Assembly: GCA_012862495.1 (NCBI GenBank)
Contig: BLSG01000370.1
Location: forward strand, 34,893-98,892
Length of the DNA: 64,000 nt
Reading direction: 5' to 3'
Origin: Thraustochytrium aureum
Taxonomy: Eukaryota
Shown one piece after another: positions 7,389 to 63,025 of this stretch. Below the pieces are notes generated by a model. That model was not told where the DNA came from. It worked only from the letters and a program-made list of their open reading frames with translations, and did no database searches. Numbering within the stretch: the stretch's first letter is position 1; each line of letters opens with the position of its first letter. Position numbers and translations under genes: made by a program.

Positions 7389-7792
7389 CAGCTTGCGGTG
7401 CGGAAAGTAGTTGATGCGATGCGATGTATGTGACGGAACGCAAGTTTGTTTTCAGTTTCCATCTGGGCTGGCGCCGCAACGAAGAAGCGCCAACGAATGG
7501 GGCAGCCGTGGTGCAAGTGACCGTGCCCGAAGGAGCAAAGATGTGGGTGGATGCACTTTCAGCAATCGCATCCACCCCGTCGGCACTGCCCAACACCAAG
7601 GGCGTGGAGCCAAACTGAACCTCGTCTGTTGACTGTCCATGGTGGTTTTTAAACGCCGCGCACGCACGAGCGGACGGACAGTTTTCCCTGGATTTGCACC
7701 ATGTTTTAAAGAAGTCCTTGTCTTCATGAACAGTATAGTAGAGTTAGTATTGGTACTTCGATAGGAGATTCATCCATCAACGAGCTCGAAGG

Positions 7793-13351: not shown

Positions 13352-13606
13352 CTCTCGAATGCCAATGGGCCGGCCTCGTGGCGCTACTCCACGACCGCCG
13401 GGGCCGTGACGGCGCCACGCGGCTTCCGCGATGTCCCTCCAAAGCGACGCCTATGCGCAGGCAGGCGCGCAATCCGTCGCGCGGGCAGACACGCGAGAGC
13501 TGGGGCTCACGGGACGCAGCAGCTAGCGCTAGCGCGACGCGGCCGTCAGCAGCTCTGCGCCAGGCCGGCAAGACTCGCTCGCACCGCCTCGCAAGCGCAG
13601 CAACGT

Positions 13607-37108: not shown

Positions 37109-39775
37109 TCACTTGCGCCTCGATCCGTGCGAGTGGCCGTGGCCGCCGCCGCCGCCGTGCGAGTGGCCGTGACCCTCGTGCGAGTCGGCAGCGGCCTGAA
37201 CCGCCGCAGGATTTATCCCAGCACGCAGCATGTTGTTGTTGCGCTCGACCTGCTCCGAGTGGCCCTCGAAGAAATAGCTGTAGTAGGCGCGTACGTCCAC
37301 CGCGACCTGGTCCTGGAGTCCGAAAACTCCATCACGTTGGTCAGCGTGCCGCGGTCGAACGGGTTTTGCTTGTTGGCGAGGTACTGGTACCGATAGCGGT
37401 TGATCACTTCGTTGGTGGTGATGTTGCGCTTGATGAAGAGCATGTGCTGCCCGACCATGAGCATCGAGTAGAGCGCGATGGGGAAGTAGAGCCAAGCAAA
37501 CATCTCCCACCACAAGAGCTGCCAAAAGTTGCTCCAAAACCCCTGCGCCTTGTTGTACGAGAGCGTGTACAAGATGACCAGGTAGATCCAGACCCACATG
37601 CAGATCATCGCGTTAAACATGGCGAAGAAAAACTCGCGGTAGTTGTTGGCCCCCACCGCGACGCCCATAAAGGGGCAAAAGTGGTCGAAGCGCGCGACGC
37701 AAACGTCCGTGAACCGATCGTGCTTGGACCTGAGCGGCTTGACGATTTCGCACGACGTGCAGACCGGAACCAAGAGGCCGTTGTCCAAAACCTCGTGGTA
37801 CAGCTCGCGGTACTTGCGCGCGTCGGCCACGTTCGGGTTGACTCCCGACACGGTCTCGTCGTCGTCCGGGCCGCCGATCATGATGCGCGTCTCGCCTTTT
37901 GCGTCGGCGCTGCCGCCGCCCTTGCCGCCACCGAGGGGGAAACCCGAGTTGCGGAAAACGTACACCCCCGGGTCCTTGACCTGCAGCATGATCCACGCGG
38001 CCCACTCGCCCCAGTAAAACACCCAGAACAGCAGAGTCAGCAAGGTGTGAAAGTTTGTCGCGGGGAACACGACCGTGTAGTACTGCCAAAACCCGATCGG
38101 CGCGAGGACCGGCCAGGCAAACCAGGTCGGGTGCGGCGTGCGCCGGTTGAAGGGGCTCACGTCCGCCTTCTTGGCCGCGCAGGCCTCCAGATAGTCGGCC
38201 ACCTTTTTGTACGCGCGAAACTGGAACGAATCCTTGCCGTACCGCGTTTGCTTTTCGCGCGCCAAGTCGGCCGCGGTGCCGCCTGTCCGGTCCTTTTTGC
38301 CCAGGTGCGGAAGCGAGCCGTGCTTGACTAGCACTGCGGCCATCGAGTTGAGCCCTTGGAGCGCGGCCCAATGGATTGGGAGGCACTGCTCAAAGTCCTC
38401 TGCCGCGACGTCCGCGCCGTGCTCGATCAGCCACTGCGCGCTGAGGTCTTCGCCCTTGTATGCGGCCCAGTGCAGCGGGGTGCGCCCGTTGTTGTCGCGC
38501 ACGTCAATGTTGAGCCCGCGTCGCAGCAAGCAGGCAAGGACGATTGTGCGCCCAAACTGCGCGGCGTGGTGCATCGCCGAGTACCCGCGCGCGTCGGAGG
38601 CCATGCGGTCGCACCCGGAATCGACCAACAGGTGCACGGCGCGCAAGTTGCCATTCAGGGCGGCCCAGTGCAGCGCGACTTCGCCGCGCGGGTTGCGCTG
38701 GTCCAGGTCGACGCGCTTGCGCACNNNNNNNNNNNNNNNNNNNNNNNNNNNNNNNNNNNNNNNNNNNNNNNNNNNNNNNNNNNNNNNNNNNNNNNNNNNN
38801 NNNNNNNNNNNNNNNNNNNNNNNNNNNNNNNNNNNNNNNNNNNNNNNNNNNNNNNNNNNNNNNNNNNNNNNNNNNNNNNNNNNNNNNNNNNNNNNNNNNN
38901 NNNNNNNNNNNNNNNNNNNNNNNNNNNNNNNNNNNNNNNNNNNNNNNNNNNNNNNNNNNNNNNNNNNNNNNNNNNNNNNNNNNNNNNNNNNNNNNNNNNN
39001 NNNNNNNNNNNNNNNNNNNNNNNNNNNNNNNNNNNNNNNNNNNNNNNNNNNNNNNNNNNNNNNNNNNNNNNNNNNNNNNNNNNNNNNNNNNNNNNNNNNN
39101 NNNNNNNNNNNNNNCCGACGCGTTTGGCGACAGCTTGTGGGCCTCGAGGACCTTGTCCAGCAGGTCGGGCTGCCCGGAGCGGATGGCGAACGAATCTCGC
39201 GGTCCCTCACCGCCTCGGGGGACTCGACAGGGCCGCCGCCGCCACCACCAGGCCCGCGCGCGGCGGACAGCTCGAGCTCGTCCGGGACCTCATCGTTCAT
39301 GCGCGCCAGCATCGCCTGCTTCATCAGCTCTTGCTTTTTCTGGAATGCGGCGCGCTCTTCAGGGGTCATTTTCGCGAGCTTTGCAGCGACGTACGCCTGC
39401 ATCTGATTTGCGCGTGCTCGTTCGTCGCTCGAGAGATTCTCGCCTACAAATGCGCCCGGGGTTGCCAGAGCCTTGAGCTCTGTTTCGCCCGCGCTTTCGC
39501 GGCCGCCGCGGCGTGCGGCCGCACCGTCATCCGAGCCTCCTGGGGCAGGGGCTGGCGTGCGCTGAGCGGCCGACGACCCGAAGAAACTCTTGACCATCCT
39601 GCGCCGCGGCCACCGCGCCCGTTAGCGGCCCGGCGACCACGCCCAGCCCACAGACGCCGCCACAGAGCCACTAGCACTAGCAAGCAAACCTCACGTACGA
39701 TATCGGGTCCGGGTTGCCCGACTCCTGCTGGTCGTCGATGCTCACCTTGTCATACTTGATATCCGAGTGCGCCAT
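37109..39775 (-). CDS. Ankyrin-repeat DHHC-family S-acyltransferase (Akr1/ZDHHC17/TIP1 type) with DHFC motif; intron 39599-39698; frameshifts near 39190 and 37320
   Basis: Ankyrin repeats (ALHWAALNG, TPLHWAAYKG, PIHWAALQG); CTSCEIVKPLRSKH..CVARFDHFCPF; TTNE; NPFDRG. First exon MAHSDIK..PIS joins MVKS in frame via a GTACGT..GCTAAC..CAG intron. Confidence 0.92.
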
Positions 39776-44274: not shown

Positions 44275-46320
44275 CTAGGCGCTCGCCTCCTGCTGCGCCT
44301 CTGGCGTCCAGGCAGGCGAAGGCGCGTTGCTCGACGTGTCCCCCGAGGGCGAACCGAGCGCGCCAGCCTCGCCCGGCATGCCGTCGCGCGACCTGCGGGC
44401 AATATCGCGCTTCTTGAAGTACTTTTGCGCGTGGGTCCGCACCTGCACCACGGTGCGCGTCCTGACCACATTGGCTATGGCGGTCCAGTGGCGCGTGCCG
44501 TGCTTTTTCAGCCCGTCGAGAAAGCGCTCGTGCTCGGCGGCCGACCAGCGGCCCGTGTTTTCCGTGCCCGGAACTGCTCCGCTAATCGGACGGCCGTTCG
44601 GGTAGGAGCGCGGCAGGCTCGCGCCTTGGGCGTCCTGGTGGGCTGCAGAAAGGCTGTGGAGCAGCGCTGCGTCCAGCGGCAGGCCGGCCGCCGCAGCAGC
44701 GGCTTCGCTGGCCCCGCCCGCAGCGCCCAGGAGGAGCTGCTGCACGTTTTGGCTCACGAGGCTAGACAGCAGGTGTTGCTGAAGCGCCTCTGTCGCGCTC
44801 GAGGTGCCCTGGGGCTGGGCCGGCGCGAACACGCCGGCGTGCTGGTTGAGCTGGCTCTGCTGCTTGCTGACGAGCCCAAGCGACGCTAACACGCTGTTGT
44901 TGTGGAGCCCCAGCAGGCTGCTCCCCTGCTTGATCGTCTGCGGTTTGTGCCCGAGCGCCGAAAACGGCGCAGCCGCCGCCGCCGCCGCGACGCCGAGGGA
45001 GGAGGAGGAGGCGCTGGAGCTGGAGGGCCCGAGTTTGGGCGACCGCGGCGGGGACACTTGTGGCGAGTTGCAGGACGAGGGCGGCGCAGACGAAGCGGCG
45101 CTCCCGAAAAGCCCGCTCTTGATCAAGTGGCTGGGCAGAATGTGCGCGAGCGGGTTTCCGCCGAGGCCCTGGCTCGCGCCCGCCCCGCGGAGATGCGCGT
45201 TGATCCTGGCGGACTCGAGGTTTAGCATTTCTGCGAGCTGCTTGTTCTTCTCGAGCTGGGCCACCAGGTCGCGCTGCTGCTGCTGGAACTGTTGCAGAAG
45301 CTGAAACTGTTGGAGGAGCTGGTCCGGGGTGACCCCCGTCGCGGCGAGATCGGCGAGGCCCTGCTGGCGCCGGTGCTGCTGGTCCTGGTCGCGGTCCGCT
45401 GTTCGTGCCTGCTGCTGCGCGCGCTCGTTCTGCGCCTGGCGGAGCTGGGCCAGTTGCTGCAGCAGTTGCGAGGTGGGGGCGGAGGCAGGGTGCCCCGCGG
45501 CCTTTGCGTTGCTTTCTGCGCCGGCCCTGGCGCTCGCAGTGGCCTCGCTCTGCTTGGACCGCGCCAAGAGGCGGTCCGACTTGCGCTGGATCGAGTAGAA
45601 GCGGTTCTTCACCGAGAGGTCCGTCCTTCCAGGCAGGAACCGCCGGGCGATAAGCGCCCACTGGTTGCCGATCTCGGCGTGCGCGCGGAAGAGCTGCTCG
45701 TCCTCCTCTGCGGTCCAGTCCGTCTTGCGGACTTGGGGGCACAGGTGGTTGTGCCAGCGGTCGCGGCACTGCTTGCCCGATCGCCGAGGCAGGGCCGCCG
45801 CCACCTTGCTCCAAGCGCGCTCGCCGAGCTGCTCCACCGCAGCGGTGAGCTGGCTGTCCTCCTCCTCGCTCCAGCCGTGTTTGCTATTCTTGACGGACGA
45901 CCCGCTAACCGAGGCGTCGTCGCCGAGCTCCTCGTCCGACTGCTCGCTCTGCGCGGCGCCGGGGCCGTCTTGCGGGCCGCTCGCGTCCTGTGCCGTGTAC
46001 TGCGGCGTTGATGGGGCTGTCGAGGACGAGGATGACATGCTCGACCCAGGCGCAGCGTCAGCCGCCGTCTTGGGGCTCGCGCCGAGGCCCAGCAGCGCCT
46101 CGGCGGTCTGCTTGGCCCTCGGCGTCGACCCTGCCCCTGCAAAGGCCTTCCGTGCCGCCTGCTCCTCGTGCACCCGACCGAGCGGCACGACCTCGTCGGC
46201 CTCCCGCCTCACGCCGGCCTCCACCTGCCTCTTGCTGGGCCCCTCGAGGCCCTTCTCCTCGCGCTGCCTTTTCACGCCGATCATCTTGCGCGGCTCGCCG
46301 GCCTCCATCCGCGCGTGCAT
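44275..46320 (-). CDS. Myb transcription factor: R2R3 repeats, Gln-rich linker, C-terminal SHAQKYF-class Myb
   Basis: WSEEED..W..RSGKQCRDRWHNHL, WTAEED..GNQWALIA..GRTDLSVKNRFY and GRWSAAEHERFLDGL..RTVVQVRTHAQKYF, all in one frame. Confidence 0.92.
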   Translation of the reverse strand: MHARMEAGEPRKMIGVKRQREEKGLEGPSKRQVEAGVRREADEVVPLGRVHEEQAARKAFAGAGSTPRAKQTAEALLGLGASPKTAADAAPGSSMSSSSSTAPSTPQYTAQDASGPQDGPGAAQSEQSDEELGDDASVSGSSVKNSKHGWSEEEDSQLTAAVEQLGERAWSKVAAALPRRSGKQCRDRWHNHLCPQVRKTDWTAEEDEQLFRAHAEIGNQWALIARRFLPGRTDLSVKNRFYSIQRKSDRLLARSKQSEATASARAGAESNAKAAGHPASAPTSQLLQQLAQLRQAQNERAQQQARTADRDQDQQHRRQQGLADLAATGVTPDQLLQQFQLLQQFQQQQRDLVAQLEKNKQLAEMLNLESARINAHLRGAGASQGLGGNPLAHILPSHLIKSGLFGSAASSAPPSSCNSPQVSPPRSPKLGPSSSSASSSSLGVAAAAAAAPFSALGHKPQTIKQGSSLLGLHNNSVLASLGLVSKQQSQLNQHAGVFAPAQPQGTSSATEALQQHLLSSLVSQNVQQLLLGAAGGASEAAAAAAGLPLDAALLHSLSAAHQDAQGASLPRSYPNGRPISGAVPGTENTGRWSAAEHERFLDGLKKHGTRHWTAIANVVRTRTVVQVRTHAQKYFKKRDIARRSRDGMPGEAGALGSPSGDTSSNAPSPAWTPEAQQEASA

Positions 46321-46700
46321 CCACCNNNNNNNNNNNNNNNNNNNNNNNNNNNNNNNNNNNNNNNNNNNNNNNNNNNNNNNNNNNNNNNNNNNNNNNNNNN
46401 NNNNNNNNNNNNNNNNNNNNNNNNNNNNNNNNNNNNNNNNNNNNNNNNNNNNNNNNNNNNNNNNNNNNNNNNNNNNNNNNNNNNNNNNNNNNNNNNNNNN
46501 NNNNNNNNNNNNNNNNCGCACGTACGTCCAAGCAAGGGCCCAAGACTCCAAGCCCAAGCCCAAACAACCAACCCCGCCGAAGCGAACCCACCTCCACCGC
46601 GTCCGCTCGTCGCTCAACAAAACGCGTCGACCCGCTGCACAAGAACGCTCAACCGCGCAGCGCGCCCGACTGCTCCCAGAGACCAAACCAAACCAATCGA

Positions 46701-46731
<31 letters not shown>

Positions 46732-46805
46732 CCTGGCGGCCTCTGCCTCCTTCGCCCGCTGCCCTGCTCTTCGCTCCCTGCCTGCCTGCCTGCCTGCCTG
46801 CCTGC
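46701..46805. repeat. Two (CCTG)n microsatellite tracts
   Basis: cctgcctgcctgcctgcctgcctgcctg at ~46701 and ~46777. Confidence 0.9.
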
Positions 46806-49721
46806 TTGCGTCAGGACTCACTGACACTGCCTTCGCCTGCGCGTTACTGCTCTGCTCGCGCGCCAGCCACGAGCTCCTTCCTCCCTTCCTCCTCCTCCTC
46901 CTCCTTTTCCTTCCTTCTTTCCTTCCTTCCTCTCTTCCTGAGGCTCTCTCTGCTGGCTGCTGGCTCCTCTCGTCGCTGTGAGAGGCCGCGCGGAACCCCC
47001 CTCACAGCGCATCGCCCTCACACCGCGCGCTGCACTCACATGCGGCGGCAGGGAGGCGGCAGGGAGGGTGCCGGCGGCCTCTGTGCGGGGTGTGAGGGGC
47101 GTCGCAGCGCCTCACATGGGGCTGTGAGGGGCCTGCGGGATTCGGGAGGCGGTTGTGAGGGGAGGCGGAGGCAGGGGGGAGGCAGGGAGGGAACGTACAT
47201 GCATACTCACTCTGCTGTGGATACGGCTTTGCGCTGTGCGTGGGTGCGCGTCACGATCGCAGTCGGCAACGGCGGTGACGCAAGCATTGCCTGGGACGCG
47301 CGCGGGTGGCGTCATGCAGCATCCAAGCAACGCGGTCGTTCTGTTTTCAATGGTCAAGATGCGCGTGCTTGCATCCAACCCGCGTCTGGTGCGGGTACAC
47401 AGAGGACGGACGAGCAGACCAGCACAGGCACGCAGGCAGGCAGGCGGTTGATTGGTCGAGTGGTCGAGGGCACGATCGATCGCAGCACCAGCCAGCAGCA
47501 CCAGCGGCGCCAGCAGCACCAGCAGCAACAGCAACCAGCGGCAGCGGCGGTGGCGGCGGTGGCGGCGGCGGCGGCGGTGGCGGTGGGGCCGGCCTTGGCA
47601 ACGTCGGCTCACTCAGCGGAAGGCTCGTCGTCGCCAGTGATGAACTGGAAGGGAGATGAGACAGCCTCGACAGACTGCGAGCGGCTCGGCCGCCAACTGA
47701 CAGACACGCACGACTCGGTTCGGAGTCGTCCGTTCCGAAGGAAGGAATCTAGGCCTACTGCCAAACGCCTCTCGTGTGGGCCGCTGGAAATCTTGCGCGC
47801 ATCCGCAAGGCCCACAGCCGCCGAGAGCCCAGCAGCAGCGCCTTGGCAGGCAGGTACTGACCTACGCGGCTGGGCATGGGACCCCGACCTAGGTACGTCG
47901 CGGCGGTGGACTCGGCCCGGCGCCCGTCGTCCGCCTGTCTGTCGGTCTGTCCGCCATCATGGGCCAACAGGCAGGCAGGCAGGCAGGCGCCTCTCTGCCC
48001 CTCACCGCGCAAGCACAAATCGCAAAACGCAACGCTCGTCCGCGGTTCCTTTGTTCCCGCTGCCCGCGGCGACACAGGATTCGGCAGCTCCGGGATCCTG
48101 CGCTGGCTGGCGAGGCTCGCGCGAATCCAATGCCCATCGGCCGGCCGGCGCGGCCCCATGAGATGATGGTGTTTCTGCGCCAACGCGCTGCCTGCTCCAC
48201 TCGCGGAAACCACCCACTGGCACGCGGGAGCCCACCCGCCCACGCACGCACGGCCTTGACGCGCTTGTGCTGGCAAACGACGCGGCCTGGGAGAATCTCG
48301 CGCTCGACAGAGCCGCCTCACGTGGTGCGTTTGTTTTTCAAGGGCCTGGTTTCACCTCCTTTCTTTTGGCTACTTTTCGTTCAGGTTTGTTTTGGACTTT
48401 GGTTTCGTCGATTCGTTTGGGGCCGAGCAAGTACTTGAACGCAATGGACGAAAAAAACGAAATTTTGAGTACAGCAAAAATCAAGGTTGAGGTTGGTTTT
48501 TTTTCTTGTTGGCGCCGTAATCCATTGCTGCAGTTCTTTCGGCGATGACGCGCGACGGCTCAACAGCGTCGCACGCGGCAGCCGTAGCGTGGACGCGCTG
48601 CCGCAAAACGGCCTCGTCACGCAGGCCCGCACTCGCCGCGCCCCCGCCGTCATTCAGGGTACCTAGCTGACGCGGGCGCCGCCAGGTGATGCCCGCACGC
48701 GAGGCTGCAATCCCCACCGCGCGCCGTGGACATAGCCGCCTCGGGTGAAATGCCATGGATCCTCCCGCGAACGCCATGCTCGGAGAGTCGGCGAGAGCAG
48801 GCTGCTGCGGGCCGCGGCCCTTCCTACCGGTACGTAGGTACGCCCTCGCTCGCTTGCCTGCTCGACGCAGGGCGCTGCCAGTCCGCAGCCGCTCCCGCCG
48901 CGACCTCGATGAAACCCACGCCCTCGCCGTCACCGAGCAAGTACAGAAAGTAACAAAGTAGCTGCTGGAGATCAGGCCTCCGGTCCCTCGCGCAGAGCAG
49001 CGTCCGGCCGTTCGCGGCATCGCGCGCGCGCGCGAGCTNNNNNNNNNNNNNNNNNNNNNNNNNNNNNNNNNNNNNNNNNNNNNNNNNNNNNNNNNNNNNN
49101 NNNNNNNNNNNNNNNNNNNNNNNNNNNNNNNNNNNNNNNNNNNNNNNNNNNNNNNNNNNNNNNNNNNNNNNNNNNNNNNNNNNNNNNNNNNNNNNNNNNN
49201 NNNNNNNNNNNNNNNNNNNNNNNNNNNNNNNNNNNNNNNNNNNNNNNNNNNNNNNNNNNNNNNNNNNNNNNNNNNNNNNNNNNNNNNNNNNNNNNNNNNN
49301 NNNNNNNNNNNNNNNNNNNNNNNNNNNNNNNNNNNNNNNNNNNNNNNNNNNNNNNNNNNNNNNNNNNNNNNNNNNNNNNNNNNNNNNNNNNNNNNNNNNN
49401 NNNNNNNNNNNNNNNNNNNNNNNNNNNNNNNNNNNNNNNNNNNNNNNNNNNNNNNNNNNNNNNNNNNNNNNNNNNNNNNNNNNNNNNNNNNNNNNNNNNN
49501 NNNNNNNNNNNNNNNNNNNNNNNNNNNNNNNNNNNNNNNNNNNNNNNNNNNNNNNNNNNNNNNNNNNNNNNNNNNNNNNNNNNNNNNNNNNNNNNNNNNN
49601 NNNNNNNNNNNNNNNNNNNNNNNNNNNNNNNNNNNNNNNNNNNNNNNNNNNNNNNNNNNNNNNNNNNNNNNNNNNNNNNNNNNNNNNNNNNNNNNNNNNN
49701 NNNNNNNNNNNNNNNNNNNNN

Positions 49722-52700
49722 GGACATTCTCAAGTGCGCTGGCAATAGCCTCCGCGAGTTTGTCAGCGAAGATGGCGTCCTCCTGGCTCACAGCGTCAAC
49801 GCTGAACGTGATCCCACCTGGGCGAACGTTATCGTGGTCCAACCAATCGCTCGTGCCATTGCAGTTGAAAAGAACAATGGGGTCCTCCTGGTCAATACTG
49901 CAAACCCAGTCTGACAAGTGACGGTGGAACGATGACGATCCTTCTTCCCCGACCTGCAGAAAATTGGGGTCGAAGCCTTTTGGATGGGGTGCGGCTGTGC
50001 GCAAGCAGCGGATCACCTCCTCTGTTGCCCAAACAATGCTCGTGCCCTTCATATACTCTGCAAAAGTGGTTGCGAAGAAATCCAGATGATCATGAGCTTT
50101 GCAAATCTCTGCAGCGCCCTTCTCGCGAGCTCGGGTCGTGATACTACCACGTGTCGACACTACAAGAACAGGATTCTCCCCAAAGCGCGAAATTGAAACA
50201 CGAGGCGGGGGAAGCGCAGAGCGAATCTCTTCAAGGACCTCGACGTTGAGTGTTGGATGCCCGAGAGTTGAGAGTGTGTCGTTCAACCGGCAAGACGCCA
50301 CGTCTTCGCTAGCATAGGCAGGGTGTGATTCACAGACAGCGCAAATAGCTTGGTCTGCTGCACGAAGTGGGCTTCCTTCAAGCCCAGCACCGAGGATGAG
50401 GCTCTCGACTAAGACCTGGAGGTCCTCGTTCACAGCCTGTTTGATGTGGTCAATTGTCTGGTCTTCCACCGAAAGCGTTGAGAGAAGTACGTCGAGTTGG
50501 TCATGGCGGTACGCAACCGACGTTTCGAGCAGACTGCTATGGTGTTTCTCGACGAAAAGGTCAAGGCCGCCGAAGCCACGAGACGCATCACTGCGGCGGA
50601 TGGCCACACTCCCTTTCACCTCAGGCAAGTAATGGACCGAAGCGTACACAATGCACCCGAGACGAGCTAACTCAGCTGCCTCGACTTGTCGCCCACACCT
50701 CGCAAAGTGCGCCACAGTCTTCTTGATAACCCGCCCGACCCTGTCATGCATTATGCCGTATGCCCCGACACAGATGTAAAACGAACGCACGAGAAGGTAG
50801 TCAAGTTCATGCAAGTTGTCCGGATCGCACATTGCAGCCCGAACTTTGTACACGTTTTCCAACGCCAGCGCAATCGCAGGATCCGACGGCGGCAGGAGAG
50901 CCTCGCGGATACGCAAGCTTTCCTCCGCGTTGAAAGCCGCCTCGTGTTTCGCCCCCATAGCGTCGTGGGTGACAGCCAAACCACCGAAAGACTTCGCCGT
51001 GACGAGGTGTAAGGTGCCGTATAGTTTGACGCGGATATCATGAGATTCTTGGCGCATTCGCAGTGACTCACGAAAAAGCCTGTCTGCTTCATCTAAATCG
51101 CGGTTTTTCTTGGCGGCTCGACCCTGTTGAAGGCGGCCAGCGGCCTCCGAAGCGAGGACCAGAGCAAGGAAGGAGAGTTCACCGACAGTCGGGTCAGGCT
51201 TGGACTCGACAATCTCGCGTGTCATTCGCAGGGCTAAGCCTCCATTTTCAGCCGAACCCGCGCCGCGGTCCTTTGACCTGTACATGATGTTACCCATGAG
51301 GTAAATAGCGCGTGCGAGAGGCAACCCGCTACCGTCACGACTACGACGTTCAAGAACAAGTGTCTGTACCTCCTTCGCCGCGTCGAACCAGGACAGGCCA
51401 AGGAAGAGACTTGCGAGTCGTTCAACAGCCTCTGTGCGCCTTCCATCCTCGTCCGCTCCGATGGACTGGATGTAGCTTGACGTGAGTGTTCGGCGCGCTT
51501 CCGTGAAGCTCGAACTGCAGGCAATGAAGTCCTTACACATCCGAAGCGTCTCGCCATGAGTGCCTTCCGAGAGCTGCATCTGTGCCTCTGCGACCTCCAG
51601 GGTAGCGTGCGATTCGACAAACTCATCAAGACGACGGAGTTTGAGCAATTGGAAGGGGAGCTCGAACACCCTTCGGAAGTTGTATCGCGCTGTTTCCAGA
51701 GACCCTGCCTCCCGAACAAGGGGCTGCGGGTCCACATAGCGATCACAGACCGTTCCTTTGTGCTCTTTGCCGCCGACGAACTTGCCGGCAAAGTAGTCGA
51801 CGAGGTTTTCACGAAACGAGTTGCTCACAGCTGTGCTCGGCAAGTAGCGCCGTGCGCAAAACCCCCGAACGACAGCGCTCGACCAACTAATCAGCGAAGC
51901 TGTGGTGTCGACAAGCATCGGGGACTCCTTGAGAAAAGGCTCCAAAAACACCGAGAACTTGGTCGAGAACCACAACTGGGCACCGACGGACCGGACGGTC
52001 CCAGTATTGGTAGACGGAATCGAGAACCTCGTTGTCGAGGCTCAAGAGGTCAAGCAGTTCCGTTTGTGAGAGGCCATCCCTTGACACCGTGATCAAGCTG
52101 CACACTGCTGCAACGACAGGCCTCCCGTAGTTGCGCTCTGCCTCGTCGAAAACAACGTCTAGTATTGACGAGGAAAAGGTGGAAGCGTCAACGATGCTGC
52201 TTGACGACCACGAGGACGCTATGCTTGCAGCGGCTCGCGACAAAATTCCGGTTGGCGCTGACCCAGAGTAGTTGCGCACATTTGTACCGACGATCTCCTC
52301 CAGGGTCTTCAAATGCTCACAAGAGAGGACGCGACCATGCTGCTCAAGGTGTGTCTTGAGCATAGCGCTCACTTGCGCCATCTCATTCTGCACCGTGTCG
52401 ACGTTAAAAATTGTAACGGCTTGAGCGTCACTGAGACCACTGTCATGAGTGTACGCGAAGCGGCAGCCGGTGCGTGCGTCCGAGGATGGGAAAAACACGT
52501 TGGCAGAGTGCTCGACAGTCTCGAGACCATCAAGAACGATGACCAAGACGCCGTCCTCGTCTGAACGAGCTGCAGCCTGAGTTAGAGCTGCGAGATAGCT
52601 CAGTCTGGCAGCGTCAAAGGACTGCTCGTCGATGTGCGCCGTTGCCGCATCCTCGTCCTCGTGAGGGAGATCAGACCCATGAGCCTTGGAGAGCTGATTC

Positions 52701-53365
52701 GTTATAGATTTGAGGAGCGTTGTTGCGCTCCCAGAATACGCTGCCACGTCGCGGTAAACAAATCGCCAAGTCTTTTGTGACCGCGCGCAAACTGTCACCA
52801 ATTCGGCGAGGAACGTGCTCCTACCGACACCAGGCGAGCCCTCGACACAGACGATTTTCGAGCTTGCATCTGTGAGCTCGCTCAGTGCCGCTTTGCACAG
52901 CTCAGCGTAGCCTTGCGACTTGGCGACGCTGCGAGTCAACTCATTGAAGTGAGTGAGGTGATTGCACGCCTCTCTGAACCCACGATCTGTGACCGTTGGG
53001 GCAACGAGCGACGATGAAAACAACGATGCAGCAATGATGCTCGAAAGCTTGTCCAAGATGTCCTGAACTGCGTCGAGCTTGATATCGCTTCCCGTGCTGA
53101 GTTGGCGATAGTCTGCGTTGACTGTGTCAACGAGACTCTCGCCGATAGCAGCTGCTGTTTTGTTGAACAGCGCCTTGACTTGTGCATGTTGGTTGTCAAA
53201 AAATTTGCGTCCGCCTTTTCGAGGTTGGCGAGTTGCCGGCGAACGCAGAACACGCTGAGACGCTCCGCATGATGCGCGCTAGCTTCGGTTTTTTCGAGGG
53301 CAAGCCTCGAGATGACTTCGTTGGCAGTAACAGATCTTGCCCACTCATTCGCGAACGCAGCAAAG
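49722..53365 (-). CDS. NWD1/NWD2-type NACHT (STAND) NTPase + TPR repeats + C-terminal degenerate FGase-like domain; both ends in gaps; frameshifts near 53200 and 51975
   Basis: SVTANEV, Walker A GSPGVGRST, Walker B LVIVLDGLE, NWD-like SRDGLSQTELLDLLSLDNEVLDSVYQYWDRPVRR and DRYVDPQPL..YNFRRVFELP. TPR-type ESLRIREALLPPSDPAIALALEN. The C-terminus aligns by eye to the 55852-57285 protein. Confidence 0.8.
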
Positions 53366-54140
53366 NNNNNNNNNNNNNNNNNNNNNNNNNNNNNNNNNNN
53401 NNNNNNNNNNNNNNNNNNNNNNNNNNNNNNNNNNNNNNNNNNNNNNNNNNNNNNNNNNNNNNNNNNNNNNNNNNNNNNNNNNNNNNNNNNNNNNNNNNNN
53501 NNNNNNNNNNNNNNNNNNNNNNNNNNNNNNNNNNNNNNNNNNNNNNNNNNNNNNNNNNNNNNNNNNNNNNNNNNNNNNNNNNNNNNNNNNNNNNNNNNNN
53601 NNNNNNNNNNNNNNNNNNNNNNNNNNNNNNNNNNNNNNNNNNNNNNNNNNNNNNNNNNNNNNNNNNNNNNNNNNNNNNNNNNNNNNNNNNNNNNNNNNNN
53701 NNNNNNNNNNNNNNNNNNNNNNNNNNNNNNNNNNNNNNNNNNNNNNNNNNNNNNNNNNNNNNNNNNNNNNNNNNNNNNNNNNNNNNNNNNNNNNNNNNNN
53801 NNNNNNNNNNNNNNNNNNNNNNNNNNNNNNNNNNNNNNNNNNNNNNNNNNNNNNNNNNNNNNNNNNNNNNNNNNNNNNNNNNNNNNNNNNNNNNNNNNNG
53901 TTTGCAAGTGGGCTTACCTTCTCACTACGAATACGGGAGGCGCGACCTCAAAACGGAAAAGTGAAGGAAAAGGCACTGCCGCCAAACCTTCGAGTAGGTC
54001 AGGCAAGCCCCATCATGATGGAGGCGGCTAGCTGGAGAGGACCCAGGCCAGCCCATGAGGGCCCGAAGCCAAATGCGAATCGAAAGTTGAGTAGTGTAGG
54101 GTATCCAGATGTCGGAGAACTCGAACGTGATCATCCAACA

Positions 54141-54638: not shown

Positions 54639-55544
54639 ATGGCGGAAATGCCAAAGAAAGTGGGAGAGCCAAGGGGCCGTCTGCTCGTACGCATCCTGCG
54701 GGAAGTTGCCGCGGCCAAAGACCTTGAGTTTGAGACGCTCTCAAGCGGGTGGATCTGTGTGCTTAGCGGAAAGGATGGCCGTCGAGTCGCAGTCTGTGGT
54801 TGTGCTTTCCCGCTCAACAGTCAATCTGCTGCAAACTTCGCTCTGGATAAGGCCTCCGCAAGCGCTATGTTCGCAAGCTTAGGCGTGTCTCACATACCCC
54901 ACGTTGTCGTCTTCGGCCCTGGGGTTTCTTACTCGATGGCAACCTCTACCCGAACGAACGGGACCATGGCCTCCCTCTTCGATCTTTTGGATACTTGGGC
55001 ATCTAGCGGTGGCCTCGTTCTCAAGCCAAAGGCAGGGACAGGAGGCACTGATGTGCTCCGTGCGCAAACTCGACTTGAAGTTGAGAAGTGCTGGCTACAC
55101 CTCTTGAAAGGTGGGGCGCGAGACTTCGTCGTTTCGCCATTCTTCCCGCTCCTAACCGAATGGCGTCTCATGATCCTTGACGACATCCTCTACGTCTGTT
55201 ATGCGAAAGTTCGAGCGGATGCAAGCGTCGAATGGCGCCACAATGTCTCGCTAGGTTCTGCTACGAGAGTCGAGACAGATGAAGCCTTCGTCCAAGGCTC
55301 CCTTTGGCCGCTAGCATCCAAGGCGATGGCGGCCCTCGGCTTGCGTTTTGCATCCGTCGACATTGTTCAACTCGACTTGACAAAGAGCTCAGATTTGCAT
55401 CGTCAGCACGCAGATTCAAATGGATTGATGGTTATGGAGGTCAACAGCGCGGTCTTTGCGGATGGTTTCATTAAACAGCACCCTGAACAACTTGAGCAAG
55501 TGCGGCGAATGTTCGACGCTGCCGTGACGAAGTGCTTTGATTGA
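54639..55544 (+). CDS. RimK-like ATP-grasp amide ligase (bacterial-type), intronless, 301 aa
   Basis: ATP-grasp motifs ALDK, VLKPKAGTGGTDV, VSPF..EWRL, WRHNVSLG, FASVDI, VMEVNS; uninterrupted ORF. Confidence 0.88.
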   Translation: MAEMPKKVGEPRGRLLVRILREVAAAKDLEFETLSSGWICVLSGKDGRRVAVCGCAFPLNSQSAANFALDKASASAMFASLGVSHIPHVVVFGPGVSYSMATSTRTNGTMASLFDLLDTWASSGGLVLKPKAGTGGTDVLRAQTRLEVEKCWLHLLKGGARDFVVSPFFPLLTEWRLMILDDILYVCYAKVRADASVEWRHNVSLGSATRVETDEAFVQGSLWPLASKAMAALGLRFASVDIVQLDLTKSSDLHRQHADSNGLMVMEVNSAVFADGFIKQHPEQLEQVRRMFDAAVTKCFD

Positions 55545-55851
55545 TTGAGAAAGAGTAGAAAAGCTGAGTGATTATAGTCCATGGTGTTACTGGGTTATAA
55601 CTGCGGAAAAGTGTAGTAATTCGGCCGCCCCTTAGCCAGCCAGTGACGTGACATTTCTGCGCGCGACAGAGGCCGCGTGCTGAAAAGCCCCCAGACCAGT
55701 CCCATAGGAACCGGGCCGACTAAGAAAAGTCTGAAGATGGCGAAGTGCCAGACGAACAATGGCTTTGAATGATTGTCTTTTTGGTGTGGCGAGATGAAGC
55801 AGTATAATTGAAGATTGTAGGTGTACCGCGTCAGCTTCGATTTCAGCTGCT

Positions 55852-57285
55852 TCAGGTCTTCAGACCCAGCAGATACAGCTCACGGAAGACTTTGAATGCG
55901 TGAGCAAACCGTAGTCCAAGACCTGTGTCGAGAACTAGTGCGACACGGAAATCCCGACTCATCTCACATTGAACCGCAAAGACTTGCCCGTCCAATAAAT
56001 CGACAACCTGACGCGTCACGGTCCGATAATCGTTGCCTCCCCGTCCAGCATACTTCGGGTTGGTGTCGACAGCCCAAGGCTCGCCGATCGCGTCTTGGAC
56101 TAGCTCCACCAACTTGGACTTCCACAGTTGATAGTCAGCCTCTGAAAAGCCAAGATGGTCGCGCGTTGAACCCTCAAAGAAACGATCCATCGCCCCAAAC
56201 CCGAGTGTTACCGCCCCATGTTTCCCGTCGACTTTCCAGTTCTGCCTTCCGTGACAGTCAACATGGAAGACGATACTTGACTGAATTCCATCAGACTTCC
56301 ATTTCGACAGGACCTGACGAAGCTTGTTGTGAAAACCACAGTCTGCTTCCGTTCCCAAAACAAGATAGTTAGGGTCCAGCGCTTTTGGGTGGGGCATTTT
56401 CGTCCTCATACCTCTCACGATCTCCGAGAACGACCATCCAAGCAAACTCCCTTGCAGTTCCGATGCCACACGCCAAGCGCCAAACTGCGTGTACGTTTCT
56501 GGCCGGTGTAGCTCGTCGCCTTTGCGAACAAGAAAAGTGCCATGCGGGCTCGTTATGAGCACCTTCTCTTTGTCAAGGCGTTCAAGAACAGCTTCTGGTC
56601 CAGGAATCGACACAGACAGGAGGTCGGCCAAGTCGTTGGCCAGCCCAAGCTCTGAGGCCAGCCTTGAGGCCGATCCGCTCTTTACCTGCGCAACGACTCG
56701 CTTAGCGCTCCGGCCGAGTTCACTTGTGTCGAGAGGGCGCCCGGCCTCACCAGGAGCGCTCTGAAGTTGCAGAGCTAGTTGGGACCAATCACCGTTGCAG
56801 TGTTTGGCTACTCGTTCTGCGTCCGCCTCGCCAACGCCAAGACTTTTGGCCCAGTCTTTGATTGCGTCGTCATTCCTTGCAGCAGAAAGAGCTTCCTCCC
56901 ACATTTCTTGAAGCTCCTTGCTCTGCGTTTCCACCTGAACATCGTTCTCCACAGGTCCAGCAATTTCCAGCGCTATTACAACCAGCTCGATCGCCCTCAT
57001 CAAGTCCTCACTTCGCTCCACCCGCGCAAGGTCTCCGATTGCCTTTACAGCGGCAAGTCCAAAGGGTTCCTCCGCGCGTATGCGCGCAATCTCCCGCTCC
57101 AAAGCAAGGACCCTGTACTTCTGGACCCAGCGCAGGGCGCGGTCAGGCAGCGCCCCAATGAGTGTGGCAAGTGTCTGCCCCATCCTTCCAGCTCCGTCAA
57201 GCGCCTGTCGAGCGAGTGCAGCCCCGGGTCGCGCGATGCCTAGCCACAACTGCTTGTCAAATCCAAGCGAAGGGTGCCTGGCCAC
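55852..57285 (-). CDS. N-formylglutamate amidohydrolase-like (FGase / poly-gamma-glutamate hydrolase clan) Zn hydrolase with helical N-terminal extension; start uncertain (first ATG at 57183)
   Basis: LITSPHG, PETYT, LDPN, GFH, HVDCHG, VTLGFG, NPKYAG, TVT, AVQCEMSRDFR, in the order typical of this fold. Confidence 0.75.
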   Translation of the reverse strand: MARHPSLGFDKQLWLGIARPGAALARQALDGAGRMGQTLATLIGALPDRALRWVQKYRVLALEREIARIRAEEPFGLAAVKAIGDLARVERSEDLMRAIELVVIALEIAGPVENDVQVETQSKELQEMWEEALSAARNDDAIKDWAKSLGVGEADAERVAKHCNGDWSQLALQLQSAPGEAGRPLDTSELGRSAKRVVAQVKSGSASRLASELGLANDLADLLSVSIPGPEAVLERLDKEKVLITSPHGTFLVRKGDELHRPETYTQFGAWRVASELQGSLLGWSFSEIVRGMRTKMPHPKALDPNYLVLGTEADCGFHNKLRQVLSKWKSDGIQSSIVFHVDCHGRQNWKVDGKHGAVTLGFGAMDRFFEGSTRDHLGFSEADYQLWKSKLVELVQDAIGEPWAVDTNPKYAGRGGNDYRTVTRQVVDLLDGQVFAVQCEMSRDFRVALVLDTGLGLRFAHAFKVFRELYLLGLKT

Positions 57286-58028
57286 TGACCGTGCGTTGTG
57301 GGTCTGCTGCTGTTCTGCGTGACGTCTTCATGCTGGCCCTTCTCTGCACGACTCGGAGTCTGGCGTCTATCATCGACTTCGGAAGTCTCACACGTGCTTG
57401 ACCTCCTGGAGAAGTGTGCACGGCGTCAATCATCATCGAAAGCCTGCTTGGCGCGGAAGAGTTGCGCGGGGCGTTGCGCAGAAAAGGTGCGCAACGCGAA
57501 AGACGACGACAGGCTCTCACGAGTTTGGCTGTCCTGGTGGCTGCCGAGTGATCGTTTCCTTCGATTGACATGTGTCACGAGTTGTGTGCCAACCAGCCAG
57601 AGAAGGTCTGTAGGGGGTACCGTAGAACTTTGACGAGCGTGTCACACGACCACCCCCCGTGACGAGCGCGGCGTCGCACGAGTCACGAGAATCCCCCATG
57701 TGACCTGTACGAGCGCGTCTTGCCCGAGCGCGCGCGTCACAGAGGGGCGAGCGAGCGCCTCAACGGATCGTTTTCGGTCGAGCACATGTGGGCAAAGGCG
57801 ACGAACAGACTGGACTTGGCGCGCGGCCTGAAGGGTGCGGCGTTGGTCCCGCGACGCGCGCGCCTCAGGACCGAGGGCTTCCCGAATTGACGGGCTCGGG
57901 CTCTCCCTGGAATTGCTCGCGCGCCGTCTCGGCGCGGCGGTGTGCGTCTCTTGTTGGTGTCCCCGAGTTGGCGCACGTTAGTTGGCGAACAAACCCGTGG
58001 GCGGAAGGAAAGGCGACAAAGGCACGGC

Positions 58029-59452
58029 ATGGGCTGCAGGCCTTGGCAGTGCGCGGACGAGGCGCCGGCGAGCGCATCGTCGACGTCGGTGCTGCAGCGC
58101 ATCGCCAAACGGGCGATTTCAAAGGCGATCAGCGACGCCGTCTCGGCCGTGTCCAGGCGGTTTGCTGAGAAAGTTCGGCACCAGGACAGCCAGAGCGGGG
58201 CGAGCCGAGGCCGCGCGCCGCCGGCCGGGGCGGCGCTGCCGGCCCCAATCCCTTGCTTGGTGATCGCAGTCTCGGCCCCCCGCGCCTCATCGGCTCCAGC
58301 TCTCCCAATCGCTCAAATTGGCACAGCGCCCTCGGCAGAGCCTGGCGCAAGCGATGCGAAGCGCTGGAAGAACCGGCTGTACAACCGGCGCACGCTGCCG
58401 ACGATTCCTTACGTGCTGGAGAACCGCGCGGCGTGGCTCGGCCCAACCAAAGAGTCCAACTGGGTTCTGCCGGGGCGCCTCATCGCCGGTGCGTACCCGC
58501 TGGCCTGGACGGCCAAGCGCGGCCGAGTGACGATTCACAAGAAGGACCTGTTCAGCCTCCTTGAGGTCGGCGTCACCACCTTTGTCTGTCTGCAGGACGA
58601 GTACAATTGTGTGAGCAACGAGGAGTTCGAGCGCCAGCACCCGGTCATTCTCGAGACTAGCTCGAAAAAGGTCGTCGCTGCGGGCGCGGTCGGGCCTGCT
58701 GGTGCAGTTGCCACAGAACCAGGCGGGCATGGCGGGGCGACTGGATGCACAGCAAAGAAGGGGGTCATTTCCCGTACATCTTCGACGCCGCGCGGGCCAT
58801 CCAGGCCGCGCATGGGTCGTGGAAAAATCGGTTGCACTTTATGCACCTGCCCATCGTAGACCTCAACTGCACCGAAGACGAGCCCGTGCTGGAACTAGCG
58901 CTGGATCTGGCCAGGAGACTTGCGGCGGCGACGGGGCCGCACAAGGACGCAGTAATCTACCTGCATTGCTGGGGAGGACACGGGCGCACGGGGACGCTCG
59001 TCGCCGTGATCCTGGGAATCCTGTACGCCCTGTCGCCCGCGGAGGCGCTAGAGCGCACCCAGCTCTACCACGACATCCGTCGCTGCAAGCTGCAGGTCGC
59101 ATCGCCGCAAACGAGCGCCAGCGCGCTCAGGTCCGCCGCATCCTCAGCTCCGCGAAGGCCCACGCGGCCATGGCCGAGTTTGGCGCCAAGTCTTTTCCGG
59201 CCCCCAGCCCGTCTTGCTTTGACCGCGACATAGAGTTCCACGCGCGTGTTGCTGAGACCAGCGAGCGCCAAGCTGCCGCGCCGTTGCGCGCCGCACCGCG
59301 CCTCGAGGAAAAGTGCGCCGATGCGGAGGTGGTCTTCGGCGCTGTGGCGCCTGCTCCGGATTTCCACGTCGAGAGCAAGCTTGAGATGGCCGGGGACTCG
59401 CCGTGCTCAATGCTTTCCCACCCTGACGTGGAGTGCAAGGTCGACGACTTTA
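58029..59452 (+). CDS. CX5R protein tyrosine/dual-specificity phosphatase; frameshifts near 58740 and 59120; 3' end in gap
   Basis: SNWVLPGRLIAGAYP, GVTTFVCLQ, HLPIVD, YLHCWGGHGRTG, SPQT. Confidence 0.88.
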
Positions 59453-60287: not shown

Positions 60288-63025
60288 CGCTCCACTTCGG
60301 CGAGCTGCTCCATGCCGGCCCTGATCTGGCTCCGGAGCCGCTCGGCCTCCGTGCTGTGGGCTTGCTGCTCGCGGGCAAGCACCTCGGCTAGTTCGTCCGA
60401 GTGGCGAGCGCGCAGGTCTTCAACGGCTTGCTCGTGAGCCCTCTCGCGCTCGCGCAGGTCGTCCTCCAGCCTCCGAAGCCGCTCGTTCATCTTGTGATGA
60501 TCCTCGCGCGCGCGCACCTCGAGCGCCGCGATGGCTTCTGCGTGGTGCTTGGCCTTGCGCGCCGATTCTTCGCGGGCCGCCTCCGCGCTTCTGGAGATCT
60601 GGGCCTCGAATTCGGCTTTGACCGCGGCCAGCTCGGCGTGAAAGGCGGCCTCCTTGTCGCGCAAGAGCTGCTGCTTTTCGTCCAGCGTGGCCTCTGTGTG
60701 CTTGAGGTTTGTGATTAGCTTTGCCTTGTCCGACTCTAGCGATTGCCGCGCGCGGCTCTCGTGCTCCACGCTCGACTTGAGCCTCTCGCACGACTTTTCA
60801 AGCGACATGACGTGCTCGTCGAGCCCGCCCTTCTCTTGGCTGATGAGGTCGAGACGGTGCTGCAGCACCGTCTCTTTTCCTTGAAATGCTCGAGCTCGCC
60901 GCGCAGCCGCGTCGCCTCTTCTTGGATCGCGCAGAGCTTTTCGACCTTTTGCTTTTCGACCTCGAGCAGCTCTGTCATCGAGCTAACTTTGGCGCTCATT
61001 GTGGCCAGGTTTGCTGAGAGCCCTGCCTTTTCCGTCTCCATGCCCTTGATGCTGGTCTCGAGCTGCGTGGTCTTCGCTTGCTCGGCTTGGACCTGGCGCG
61101 CCAGCTCGGCGTACTCGGCCTTGTGCTGGGCGGCCTCCTTCTCTAGCTTGGTCTTGAGCTCCACGGACGCTTGCTCGGTGGCCGCAATCTTGCGCGCTGC
61201 CTCCTCCTGCTTGGCGGCCATCTCCTGCTTGAGGACTTGGAGTTTTTGCTGGGCCTCTTGGCGGGCTCGCTGCTCGAGGACGTGCTTTTTGCGTCAGCTG
61301 CTGAAGCGTCTGCTTTGTCTGCGTGATCTCCAGCTCGGCCTGCGAGACCTGAGACTTTAGCTTCTCGGCGACCTTCTTGGCGAGGTCGAGTTCCTGCGCG
61401 TGCTTTTGCTCGGTCTCGGTCAAGGTCGCCTTGAGCGTGTCGATTTGCGAGATCTGCCGCTTGTTGAGCTTGATCGCGTCGAATAGGGTGCGCTCCTTGT
61501 CTTCGAGCACGCTGCTCATTTCGGTCACCTTGGCCTGGAGCGACGCGGCCTGCCTTTCCTGCTCCTCGGCGCGCGCTTTGGCGGCGCTCAGGGCCTGCTC
61601 GCTCTCCTTGAACGTCTTCATCATTTCCTCGTCCACGTAGACGGACCCATCCGAGTCGTCCATGTCGGCTGCTAGCCGCGCCGCGTCAATCTCGACGACC
61701 GTCTCGTTTACTTTGGCGTCCACCTCGACGCACATGGCGCGCGAGGCGAACTCGAGCGTGGAGAGCGTCTCGCTCGTGCTCGTCTCTGCGGGCGAGACGC
61801 AGACCAGCAGCGCCGTTTTGCAGTTGCCGCCGACAGAGCCCTCCAAGATGCGGGTCAGCTTCGAGTCGCGAAAGGGAACGTGCTTGCGCTTGTCTGCGAG
61901 CGCCTGGATCACGTTGCCAAGCGCCAAGAGGCTGCCGTTGATGTTGGTGGCCTCCTTAAAGTTCGAGCCGGTCACGCCGCTACGCTTGACGCGCTCGCTT
62001 CCCGCCAAGTCGACCACGCTGAGCTGCCCACACGTGGCCTGGATCTTGCGCAGCTGCCCCTCGCCTTCGCCGCCCTGCGCTCGCGCACGCCTCGTCACGC
62101 GGACCTGGAACACCGCGTGCGAGCGACTCGAGGACTTGTTCATTTTGGTCTCGGCGTAAAAGAGCCCGGAGCGGGCGCGCTTAAACGTCTCCAGCATCGA
62201 TGCTGGCGACTTGCAGTCTACCCAGCACAGCTCGGGGATGCCGCCGCCCTTTTGAACGTTCAGGTTTTGGCCCTCGCCCTTCTTGTAGCCGGGGTGGAGG
62301 AGGTCGTCCACCTGCTCGTTGTACACTTGGAAACCGGCGGCTTGTACCGTGTACACGTTGCTCTTGTCCATGGCGGCGCGCGCATACAGCGTGGCTACGA
62401 GGCGCGGAAGGATGCCGACTTCCTCCATGTCGCTCACCTCCGTGTTGAGCAGCGAGTAGGTCTTGCCGGACCCGGTCTGCCCGTACGCAAAGATGCAGCC
62501 GTTGAATCCCTTCATCACCTCGACGAGGACGGGCAGGCCCACGCGCTGAAACACCTCCTTCTGACTAGCGCTCTCCGGGAAGGCGCCGTCTAGCTTGTAC
62601 GCCTTTTCCTTGCGGTCCATGTGCACCTCTTTGGTCTCGTTCAGGCAGCTCATCACGTCGGGGCCTGTGCTCACCGCGACCCGCTCATTCTCGGTGNNNN
62701 NNNNNNNNNNNNNNNNNNNNNNNNNNNNNNNNNNNNNNNNNNNNNNNNNNNNNNNNNNNNNNNNNNNNNNNNNNNNNNNNNNNNNNNNNNNNNNNNNNNN
62801 NNNNNNNNNNNNNNNNNNNNNNNNNNNNNNNNNNNNNNNNNNNNNNNNNNNNNNNNNNNNNNNNNNNNNNNNNNNNNNNNNNNNNTCGGTGTCCATCTCT
62901 ACGGCAGGTAGGTCGCCCGACTCGCGATCCAAGAACGGTCTCGACCGAGCAAACACCAGCACGCGCCCCGCGGCTGCCGTGGCAGGGGCCGCCTTGCCCC
63001 CGACGCTCCCCTTCCTGCTCGCCAT
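60288..63025 (-). CDS. Kinesin with N-terminal motor and long coiled coil; frameshifts near 61290 and 60875; 3' end in gap
   Basis: FAYGQTGSGKT, MNKSSSRSH, VDLAGSER, HVPFRDSKLTRIL, ETLSTLEFASRA. Confidence 0.95.

Follow-up and report, generated by a model that had tools for sequence, protein, structure and literature searches.

The window that we analysed is a stretch of 64,000 nucleotides of Thraustochytrium aureum contig BLSG01000370.1, a GC-rich, eukaryotic scaffold sequence in which there are 18 runs of N. It harbours a STAND-TPR gene and a standalone hydrolase gene on the minus strand, with an ATP-grasp ligase gene lying between them on the plus strand. Their features are as follows.

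49722..53365, minus strand: visible part of the STAND-TPR gene, both ends of which enter N gaps (49039-49721 and 53366-53899).
52499..52900, minus strand: STAND NTPase (Pfam NPHP3_N and AAA_16 above cut-off).
51938..52162, minus strand: NWD1-like winged helix domain (Pfam HTH_NWD1, E 1.2e-10).
50728..51132, minus strand: TPR repeats of the kinesin-light-chain/NPHP3 type (TPR_10 above cut-off; TPR_12, E 7e-7).
50212..50550, minus strand: small helical domain, duplicated with the hydrolase domain (homology to the standalone protein; weak when compared pairwise alone).
49723..50211, minus strand: putative pseudo-hydrolase domain, FGase/PghP-like by homology and truncated by the N gap.
52041-49723, minus strand: frame P0001, TPRs and then a 270-residue tail.
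54639..55544, plus strand: gene of a RimK-like ATP-grasp ligase of 301 aa (NCBIfam rimK_fam, E 1.1e-8, below cut-off).
55852..57183, minus strand: standalone hydrolase, from which the copy derives (first ATG at 57183, frame open to 57327).
57327-55855, minus strand: frame P0002, the standalone hydrolase.

The NTPase and the winged helix are carried by a separate frame (53278-51890). The peptides quoted in the first-pass annotation are all in frame at their places in P0001 and P0002. The STAND-TPR gene shows two frameshifts in the window (51934 and 53197), both absent from the public contigs of run X1, and its tail is cut by the gap at 49721, a point that the first-pass annotation does not mention. 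The frameshift at 51934 is removed by the contigs of two of the four runs (X1 and X3), and that at 53197 by those of one (X1); an X3 contig ends at 53203, six letters beyond 53197, and the absence of the frameshift is not seen there. The same public runs correct two shifts in a nearby phosphatase-like gene, so that the window either carries indel errors or represents another strain. A 1285-nt X1 contig is unbroken from the end of the TPRs (50737) across the whole visible domain and enters the gap by 269 nt. The fusion to the TPRs, as originally proposed, is thus upheld by a contig without a joint, presumably derived from RNA, and by orthologous fusions. The X1-X3 contigs (RNA is our guess) cover coding stretches, with no cover in the bins 46800-47306 and 57447-58460, a pattern that is not proof of transcription. 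A pseudogene or an assembly chimera was ruled out by the X1 contigs devoid of frameshifts, by the contig spanning the TPR end and the domain, and by the full-length orthologues.

The surroundings of these genes can be described briefly. A Myb-domain-like gene (domain called by eye; 44275-46325, minus strand), covered by X2 contigs, adjoins the STAND gene. The phosphatase-like gene (57891-59230) has its HCWGGHGR motif divided between frames; in X3 contigs there is an additional base at each of 58767 and 59112, and its splits are therefore likely assembly errors. Farther away we recognized by eye a voltage-gated channel (7777-13450), a CBP/p300-like acetyltransferase (15218-17380), an ankyrin-DHHC protein (37213-38724) and a kinesin (60983-62695), several of them broken by frame changes, i.e., an ordinary housekeeping context. 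Two short stretches flanking the ligase gene (54020-54054 and 55637-55712) stand at 10-20 times the surrounding contig depth, with loose ends in X1-X3, and are likely dispersed repeats; no second copy of them was found within the 64-kb window, and Rfam gave one chance-level match only. The stretch 53954-54019 is skipped by X1 and X2 contigs. Just before the gap, positions 53910-53919 of the minus strand read as a splice donor (AG/GTAAG), and the STAND gene may thus have a 5' exon above 53917.

The STAND-TPR protein matches Pfam NPHP3_N and TPR_NPHP3 and shows weak matches to NPHP3. The best relatives of both this protein and the hydrolase come from Hondaea fermentalgiana and from an MMETSP transcriptome, which we take to be that of Aurantiochytrium limacinum. 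Besides the window, three orthologous fusions comprise the TPRs and the domain, namely P0007 (Hondaea fermentalgiana, 1423 aa), P0009 (1510 aa) and the fragment P0008. The two full-length orthologues start with a DUF4062/TeTIR domain (above cut-off in P0007, weak in P0009), a stretch that in the window would fall in the upper N gap (53366-53899), the flanking residues of which align. The conserved Glu of DUF4062, a TIR-like NADase domain, is replaced by Ala in P0007 and by Ile in P0009, and is present in all six outgroup STANDs; we took this column to be the catalytic one from conservation and recall, not from an alignment to TEP1. The available text of two preprints presents TeTIR domains as NADases depending on such a Glu, and NPHP3 as devoid of it (bioRxiv 10.64898/2026.09.21.753143; 10.64898/2026.09.04.749371). 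The cleavage of NAD+ by the STAND protein itself is therefore unlikely to be its output. Furthermore, the Walker A motif reads G-x4-G-R-S in the window, with an Arg in place of the Lys (52820-52822) that is kept in both orthologues and in the six outgroup STANDs; an X1 contig covers 52474-52943 and its one difference from the window falls outside this Arg. Together with the absent DUF4062 Glu, this Arg makes it unlikely that the STAND protein kills alone, and suggests either a sensor needing a partner or an adaptor. Searches of the 64-kb window by tblastn with P0007 and P0009 matched this locus only, revealing no second STAND, and none of the eight other STAND/TPR matches has an added hydrolase-fold domain.

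The standalone hydrolase P0002 belongs to a family of protists and algae that has no name and is characterized by the motif TAPH-x-E...DPN...DxHG...QxE. With a profile built from the two window proteins, a search of 1.84 billion representatives retrieved 76 proteins (76 clusters at 50% identity). No Pfam match of P0002 passed any cut-off, FGase and Gamma_PGA_hydro included; weak matches, below cut-off, occur in four of 69 relatives. Searches of PDB sequences yielded no match and then two insignificant ones, NCBIfam matched neither the STAND tail nor the standalone protein, a word-index search with the hydrolase domain retrieved nothing among 1569 candidates, and two metagenome scans gave no loci. 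The AlphaFold2 model of the standalone protein, built from 72 sequences, reached a pLDDT of 86.9 (a single-sequence prediction, at only 34.6, was of no use) and displays a zinc-carboxypeptidase-like fold. Its best matches, with tied Z-scores, were the FGase-like Atu2144 (2odf, Z 14.2), the phage PghP (3a9l, Z 13.9), YndL/PghL (5onj, Z 13.3) and FGase (2q7s, Z 13.1), with rmsd of 3.2-4.0 over 176-201 aligned residues and 14-18% identity; M14 carboxypeptidases came behind. The activity of PghP requires His40, Glu45, His103 and Glu165, according to the available text of PMC6506827. By motif order and fold, not by residue-level superposition, these map to His262 (56542-56544), Glu277 (56497-56499), His359 (56251-56253) and Glu455 (55963-55965) of P0002, which are all intact and lie in family-invariant columns (of the 71 other family rows, 71 have the first His, 69 the first Glu, 66 the second His and 52 the last Glu, most other cells being gaps, 15 of them at the last Glu). 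Judged by its fold and family, the standalone protein would be a zinc amidohydrolase that attacks an amide or peptide bond of the glutamyl type, its substrate being suggested by fold neighbours at 14-18% identity and tied Z-scores. It shares the fold and the His-Glu-His plus distal Glu order with FGase (PF05013; 2q7s, 2odf) and PghP/PghL (PF05908; 3a9l, 5onj), but differs from them by its low identity and by scores below the Pfam cut-offs, and the STAND copy differs by lacking the catalytic residues. The available text of PMC4497714 notes only three PghP-like matches in eukaryotes and does not mention this family.

The homology of the STAND tail to the standalone hydrolase, which had been aligned by eye, is significant: 62 of 252 residues are identical in BLASTP (25% over 252 aa, E 7e-20) and hhalign gives 99.8% over 218 columns. 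For the catalytic-domain part, the Smith-Waterman score of 156 was reached by none of 1000 shuffles (maximum 54). The similarity said to extend upstream is of a more mixed standing. Taken by itself, the helical part has no pairwise significance (score 37, reached by 114 of 1000 shuffles), but it occupies the same aligned position in seven thraustochytrid proteins, and its HMM found one outside match, P0017 (E 1e-4).

Several predicted catalytic residues are replaced in the STAND copy. The window has Arg631 (50149-50151) for the first His, His650 (50092-50094) for the Glu, Asn726 (49864-49866) for the Asp and Asn728 (49858-49860) for the second His, and it keeps DPN (49963-49971). The two His replacements and the conserved DPN loop agree with the first-pass annotation, which had however paired the candidate Glu with an Asp; E277 of P0002 aligns with His650, the earlier reading being one residue off. 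The gap at 49721 cuts the domain about 40 residues short of the last (general-base) Glu and about 70 short of the end of the Hondaea orthologue, so that the C-terminal third of the window copy falls in N. At the four positions corresponding to His-Glu-His and the distal Glu, the copies read R/H/N followed by the gap in the window, H/Q/H/S in both P0007 and P0008, and C/Q/H/H in P0009. Hence, the first Glu is lost in all four copies and the last Glu in the three where it can be read. The Asp of DxH is Asn in the window and Val in the other three copies, where the substitutions E>Q, D>V and Q>D are identical. The loss of both His is peculiar to the window species (P0007 and P0008 keep both, P0009 one), while the losses at the Glu, Asp and Gln positions are common to the copies. 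As regards the 25 columns conserved at 85% or more in the 71 other family rows, the three standalone proteins keep 23, 21 and 21, whereas the STAND copies keep 7 of 19 (window), 13 of 25 (P0007), 14 of 25 (P0008) and 10 of 24 (P0009). The invariant residues R, W, DPN and G are kept in the STAND copy, with DPN, Trp and Gly present in all four. The STAND copies are thus very likely pseudo-enzymes, a view first based on the double His loss and now better founded on the catalytic residues missing from four fusions. With these predicted catalytic residues gone, the domain likely binds rather than cuts. P0017 (Pterocystis) comprises a TPR_12, the helical domain and the hydrolase domain; it keeps His-Glu-His and has His and Gly at the Gln and Glu positions, possibly an independent inactivation.

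The two genes are also neighbours in Hondaea, where the hydrolase (GBG34147.1) and the STAND protein (GBG34148.1) bear consecutive accessions, each on a 108,832-nt contig. A tree of 23 rows, chosen by us from 78 family rows, places the four STAND domains as sister to the three neighbouring hydrolases through one branch (100/98), and a quick tree of 75 rows agrees with this grouping; the profile, being built from the two window proteins, favours the finding of their nearest kin and does not set the branching. This arrangement points to an old local duplication. A recent duplication within the window species, which would unite the two window copies in a clade, was rejected (p-AU 0.00125). The closest relatives from outside (P0010, P0012/P0083 and P0017) group beside the clade of STAND domains and neighbouring hydrolases (94/88), and TPR-like N-termini occur outside it in P0017 by Pfam, and in P0010 and P0083 by eye only, the TPR model not finding them. 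Consequently, the TPR-hydrolase fusion may have come first.

The conservation of the domain is comparable to that of its host protein. Among P0007, P0008 and P0009 the domain is 39-45% identical, their NTPase 45% and the active hydrolases 40-49%; the window copy is 28-33% identical to the other three and its NTPase 29-30% to theirs. In the STAND gene, run X1 and the window show 14 listed differences, nine of them silent, in this one comparison. The window copy is the most decayed (branch of 1.62, versus 0.50-0.97 for the others) and, given its Walker A Arg as well, a working switch is doubtful in this species. These identities indicate that the STAND hydrolase copy is under selection, and the same substitutions in three copies point to a selected new state.

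The ligase gene is covered by X1-X3 contigs and its product is 56% identical to two relatives; the records of one of these and of one hydrolase orthologue both give a longest contig of 2895 nt, which may be a hint. The four ligase matches include no Hondaea ATP-grasp, and the three-gene cluster is known from the window alone. A viral scan with the ligase gave no loci and a plasmid search with P0004 gave no match. Turning to bacteria, in one of 26 ATP-grasp loci, that of Nocardia niigatensis, a RimK ATP-grasp gene is directly followed by a member of the hydrolase family; a search of 401 genomes of its phylum found this hydrolase in N. niigatensis itself only. The locus (L025:4911-10741) contains the ATP-grasp gene, the FGase-like hydrolase, a 391-aa ORF carrying the motif HEWGH, and a gene with a CHAT domain, all between transposase-like genes, and is possibly a mobile system for conflict or peptide tagging. 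On three related arthrobacter plasmids there are distant relatives of the hydrolase, in part degenerate (weak matches, E 6e-8 to 8e-4, second His missing), which lie directly before an R2K ATP-grasp gene on two plasmids; the third has a weak R2K match at a distance of two genes. These megaplasmid loci (L029:4923-6693, L031:3902-5714 and L030:4911-7247) perhaps represent another pair of pseudo-enzyme and ligase, and the available text of PMC4431377 proposes R2K enzymes as peptide ligases of conflict systems. Lastly, a gamma-glutamyl cyclotransferase is fused to two of the 69 scanned family members. The Nocardia pair, the R2K neighbours on plasmids and the cyclotransferase fusions together suggest a ligase and a hydrolase acting on one glutamyl bond.

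From these lines of evidence we propose, tentatively and with somewhat less than even confidence, that the C-terminal domain is an old duplicate of the neighbouring hydrolase turned into a non-cutting binding module, which reports the substrate of the hydrolase to the STAND switch. To judge from fold and family, the ATP-grasp enzyme would make a glutamyl-type amide or peptide bond and the standalone hydrolase would remove this product. The dead copy would hold the product in the manner of an E-to-Q substrate trap, and its binding might alter the conformation or the partners of the STAND protein, which is the weakest step. A binding role of the dead domain is likely; our best reading is that of a non-catalytic reader, the ligand of which would likely be a glutamyl peptide or a tag that the neighbouring enzymes produce and remove. 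The rarity of the ligase-hydrolase pairing in bacteria (one of 26 ATP-grasp loci) counts against this mechanism, as do the weakness of the plasmid matches, which lack the second His themselves, the lack of a Hondaea ATP-grasp among the four ligase matches, and the decay and Walker A Arg of the window copy.

A possible, though less than probable, alternative is that the dead copy serves as a regulatory or scaffold subunit, with the active hydrolase, the ligase or some other protein as its binding partner. The whole STAND protein would then be an adaptor like NPHP3, with no immune function, for instance in the glutamylation of flagella or of the cytoskeleton. Such a role would suit the NPHP3_N and TPR_NPHP3 domains with the weak NPHP3 matches, as well as the fold shared with CCP5 (Z 11.6). 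CCP5 is a tubulin deglutamylase, and NPHP3 has a ciliary role. The absence of paralogous fusions among the 76 family matches also speaks for a scaffold, as does the TIR-like Glu missing in both orthologues and present in the six outgroup STANDs, NPHP3 being likewise without it in the available text of bioRxiv 10.64898/2026.09.21.753143. Nevertheless, nothing links the cluster to flagella, and the retained R, W, DPN and G428 would include residues near the motif region, which would fit a retained pocket.

The analogy with plant integrated decoys, drawn at the outset, survives in its architecture and in the host-gene origin of the extra domain; no pathogen target, partner executor or diversifying selection was seen. 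A decoy as known from plants would mean that a protein of a parasite or virus, in attacking the hydrolase, hits the dead copy instead, and that the STAND protein is the sensor half of a sensor-executor pair. Sensor NLRs typically carry a dead effector domain and a weakened P-loop, to which the missing DUF4062 Glu of the orthologues and the Walker A Arg of the window would correspond, and the domain evolves faster than the active copy (1.6-2.2 versus 1.1-1.4 changes per column on the path from the duplication, summed by hand). DUF4062 STANDs act in bacterial defence, according to the available text of bioRxiv 10.64898/2026.09.04.749371. We nonetheless regard this decoy as unlikely, as no attacker is known, the strain differences are mostly silent, the window holds one STAND only, and the same domain is retained in four copies, not swapped. 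Slow decay appears quite improbable. An ancestral TPR-hydrolase fusion would have duplicated, the standalone protein keeping the chemistry and the STAND copy wasting under structural constraint only; this would account for the TPR_12 ahead of the domain in P0017, for the relatives branching beside the clade, for a marginal TPR-like repeat kept in one standalone protein (5.9 bits; best of 810 shuffles 4.5) and for losses that accumulate by lineage. It is opposed by the identical substitutions in three copies and by a domain as conserved as the NTPase across species differing at half of their residues. Finally, it is very improbable that the copy is an enzyme with altered chemistry, in which His-Gln-His (P0007 and P0008) or Cys/His (window species) binds the metal and another residue is the base. 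P0007 and P0008 do have both His and the intervening Gln, and the fold matches include structures of Csd4 with Gln46, presumably a zinc ligand, but Ser, Ser and His stand in place of the last Glu, two copies have Cys or Arg for the first His, and the replacements vary between species.

Whichever role it plays, the STAND-TPR protein can be placed among known systems. Like the TeTIR/NIR (DUF4062) STANDs TEP1, NWD1/2 and NPHP3, it combines a NACHT-like NTPase, an NWD1 winged helix and TPRs, with DUF4062 seen in its full-length orthologues (weakly in P0009), and these orthologues, like NPHP3, lack the presumed catalytic DUF4062 Glu; unlike the TeTIR/NIR STANDs, it has a hydrolase-fold domain added after the TPRs. 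For integrated decoys we follow the definition given for plant NLRs with integrated domains of the RRS1-WRKY type, and NLRP1B is an animal case (PMC8813719 and PMC13037943, respectively). The protein resembles both in that a STAND NTPase is followed by a repeat domain and by a C-terminal domain copied from a host protein and fused in frame. It departs from the plant proteins by its TPRs instead of LRRs, its NWD1/NPHP3-type NTPase, the close neighbourhood of the source gene, the old and conserved state of the pseudo-enzyme and the lack of a partner NLR in the 64-kb window; it is a candidate only. No description of this fusion or cluster was found in the literature, as covered by titles and the openings of abstracts.

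We also considered, as unlikely in its full form, a writer-eraser-reader unit of thraustochytrids, in which the bacterial-type ligase makes a glutamyl peptide or protein tag, the new PghP-fold hydrolase erases it and the STAND protein with the dead copy reads it, so that any parasite blocking the eraser or mimicking the tag would set off the receptor. If true, it would be an integrated pseudo-enzyme sensor of an origin separate from that in plants, next to which the genes of its ligand pathway are located. Most integrated sensor domains known so far come from plant NLRs, and what they target is seldom known. The window places the receptor gene next to a candidate ligase and the source gene, and the orthologues show the steps by which the enzyme copy was switched off. 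Should the reader model prove false, a clean, conserved pseudo-enzyme fusion, absent from the searches that we ran, would still stand; should it prove true, it would offer a protist STAND protein a ligand that can be tested directly, and would assign a function to a hydrolase family that so far has no name.
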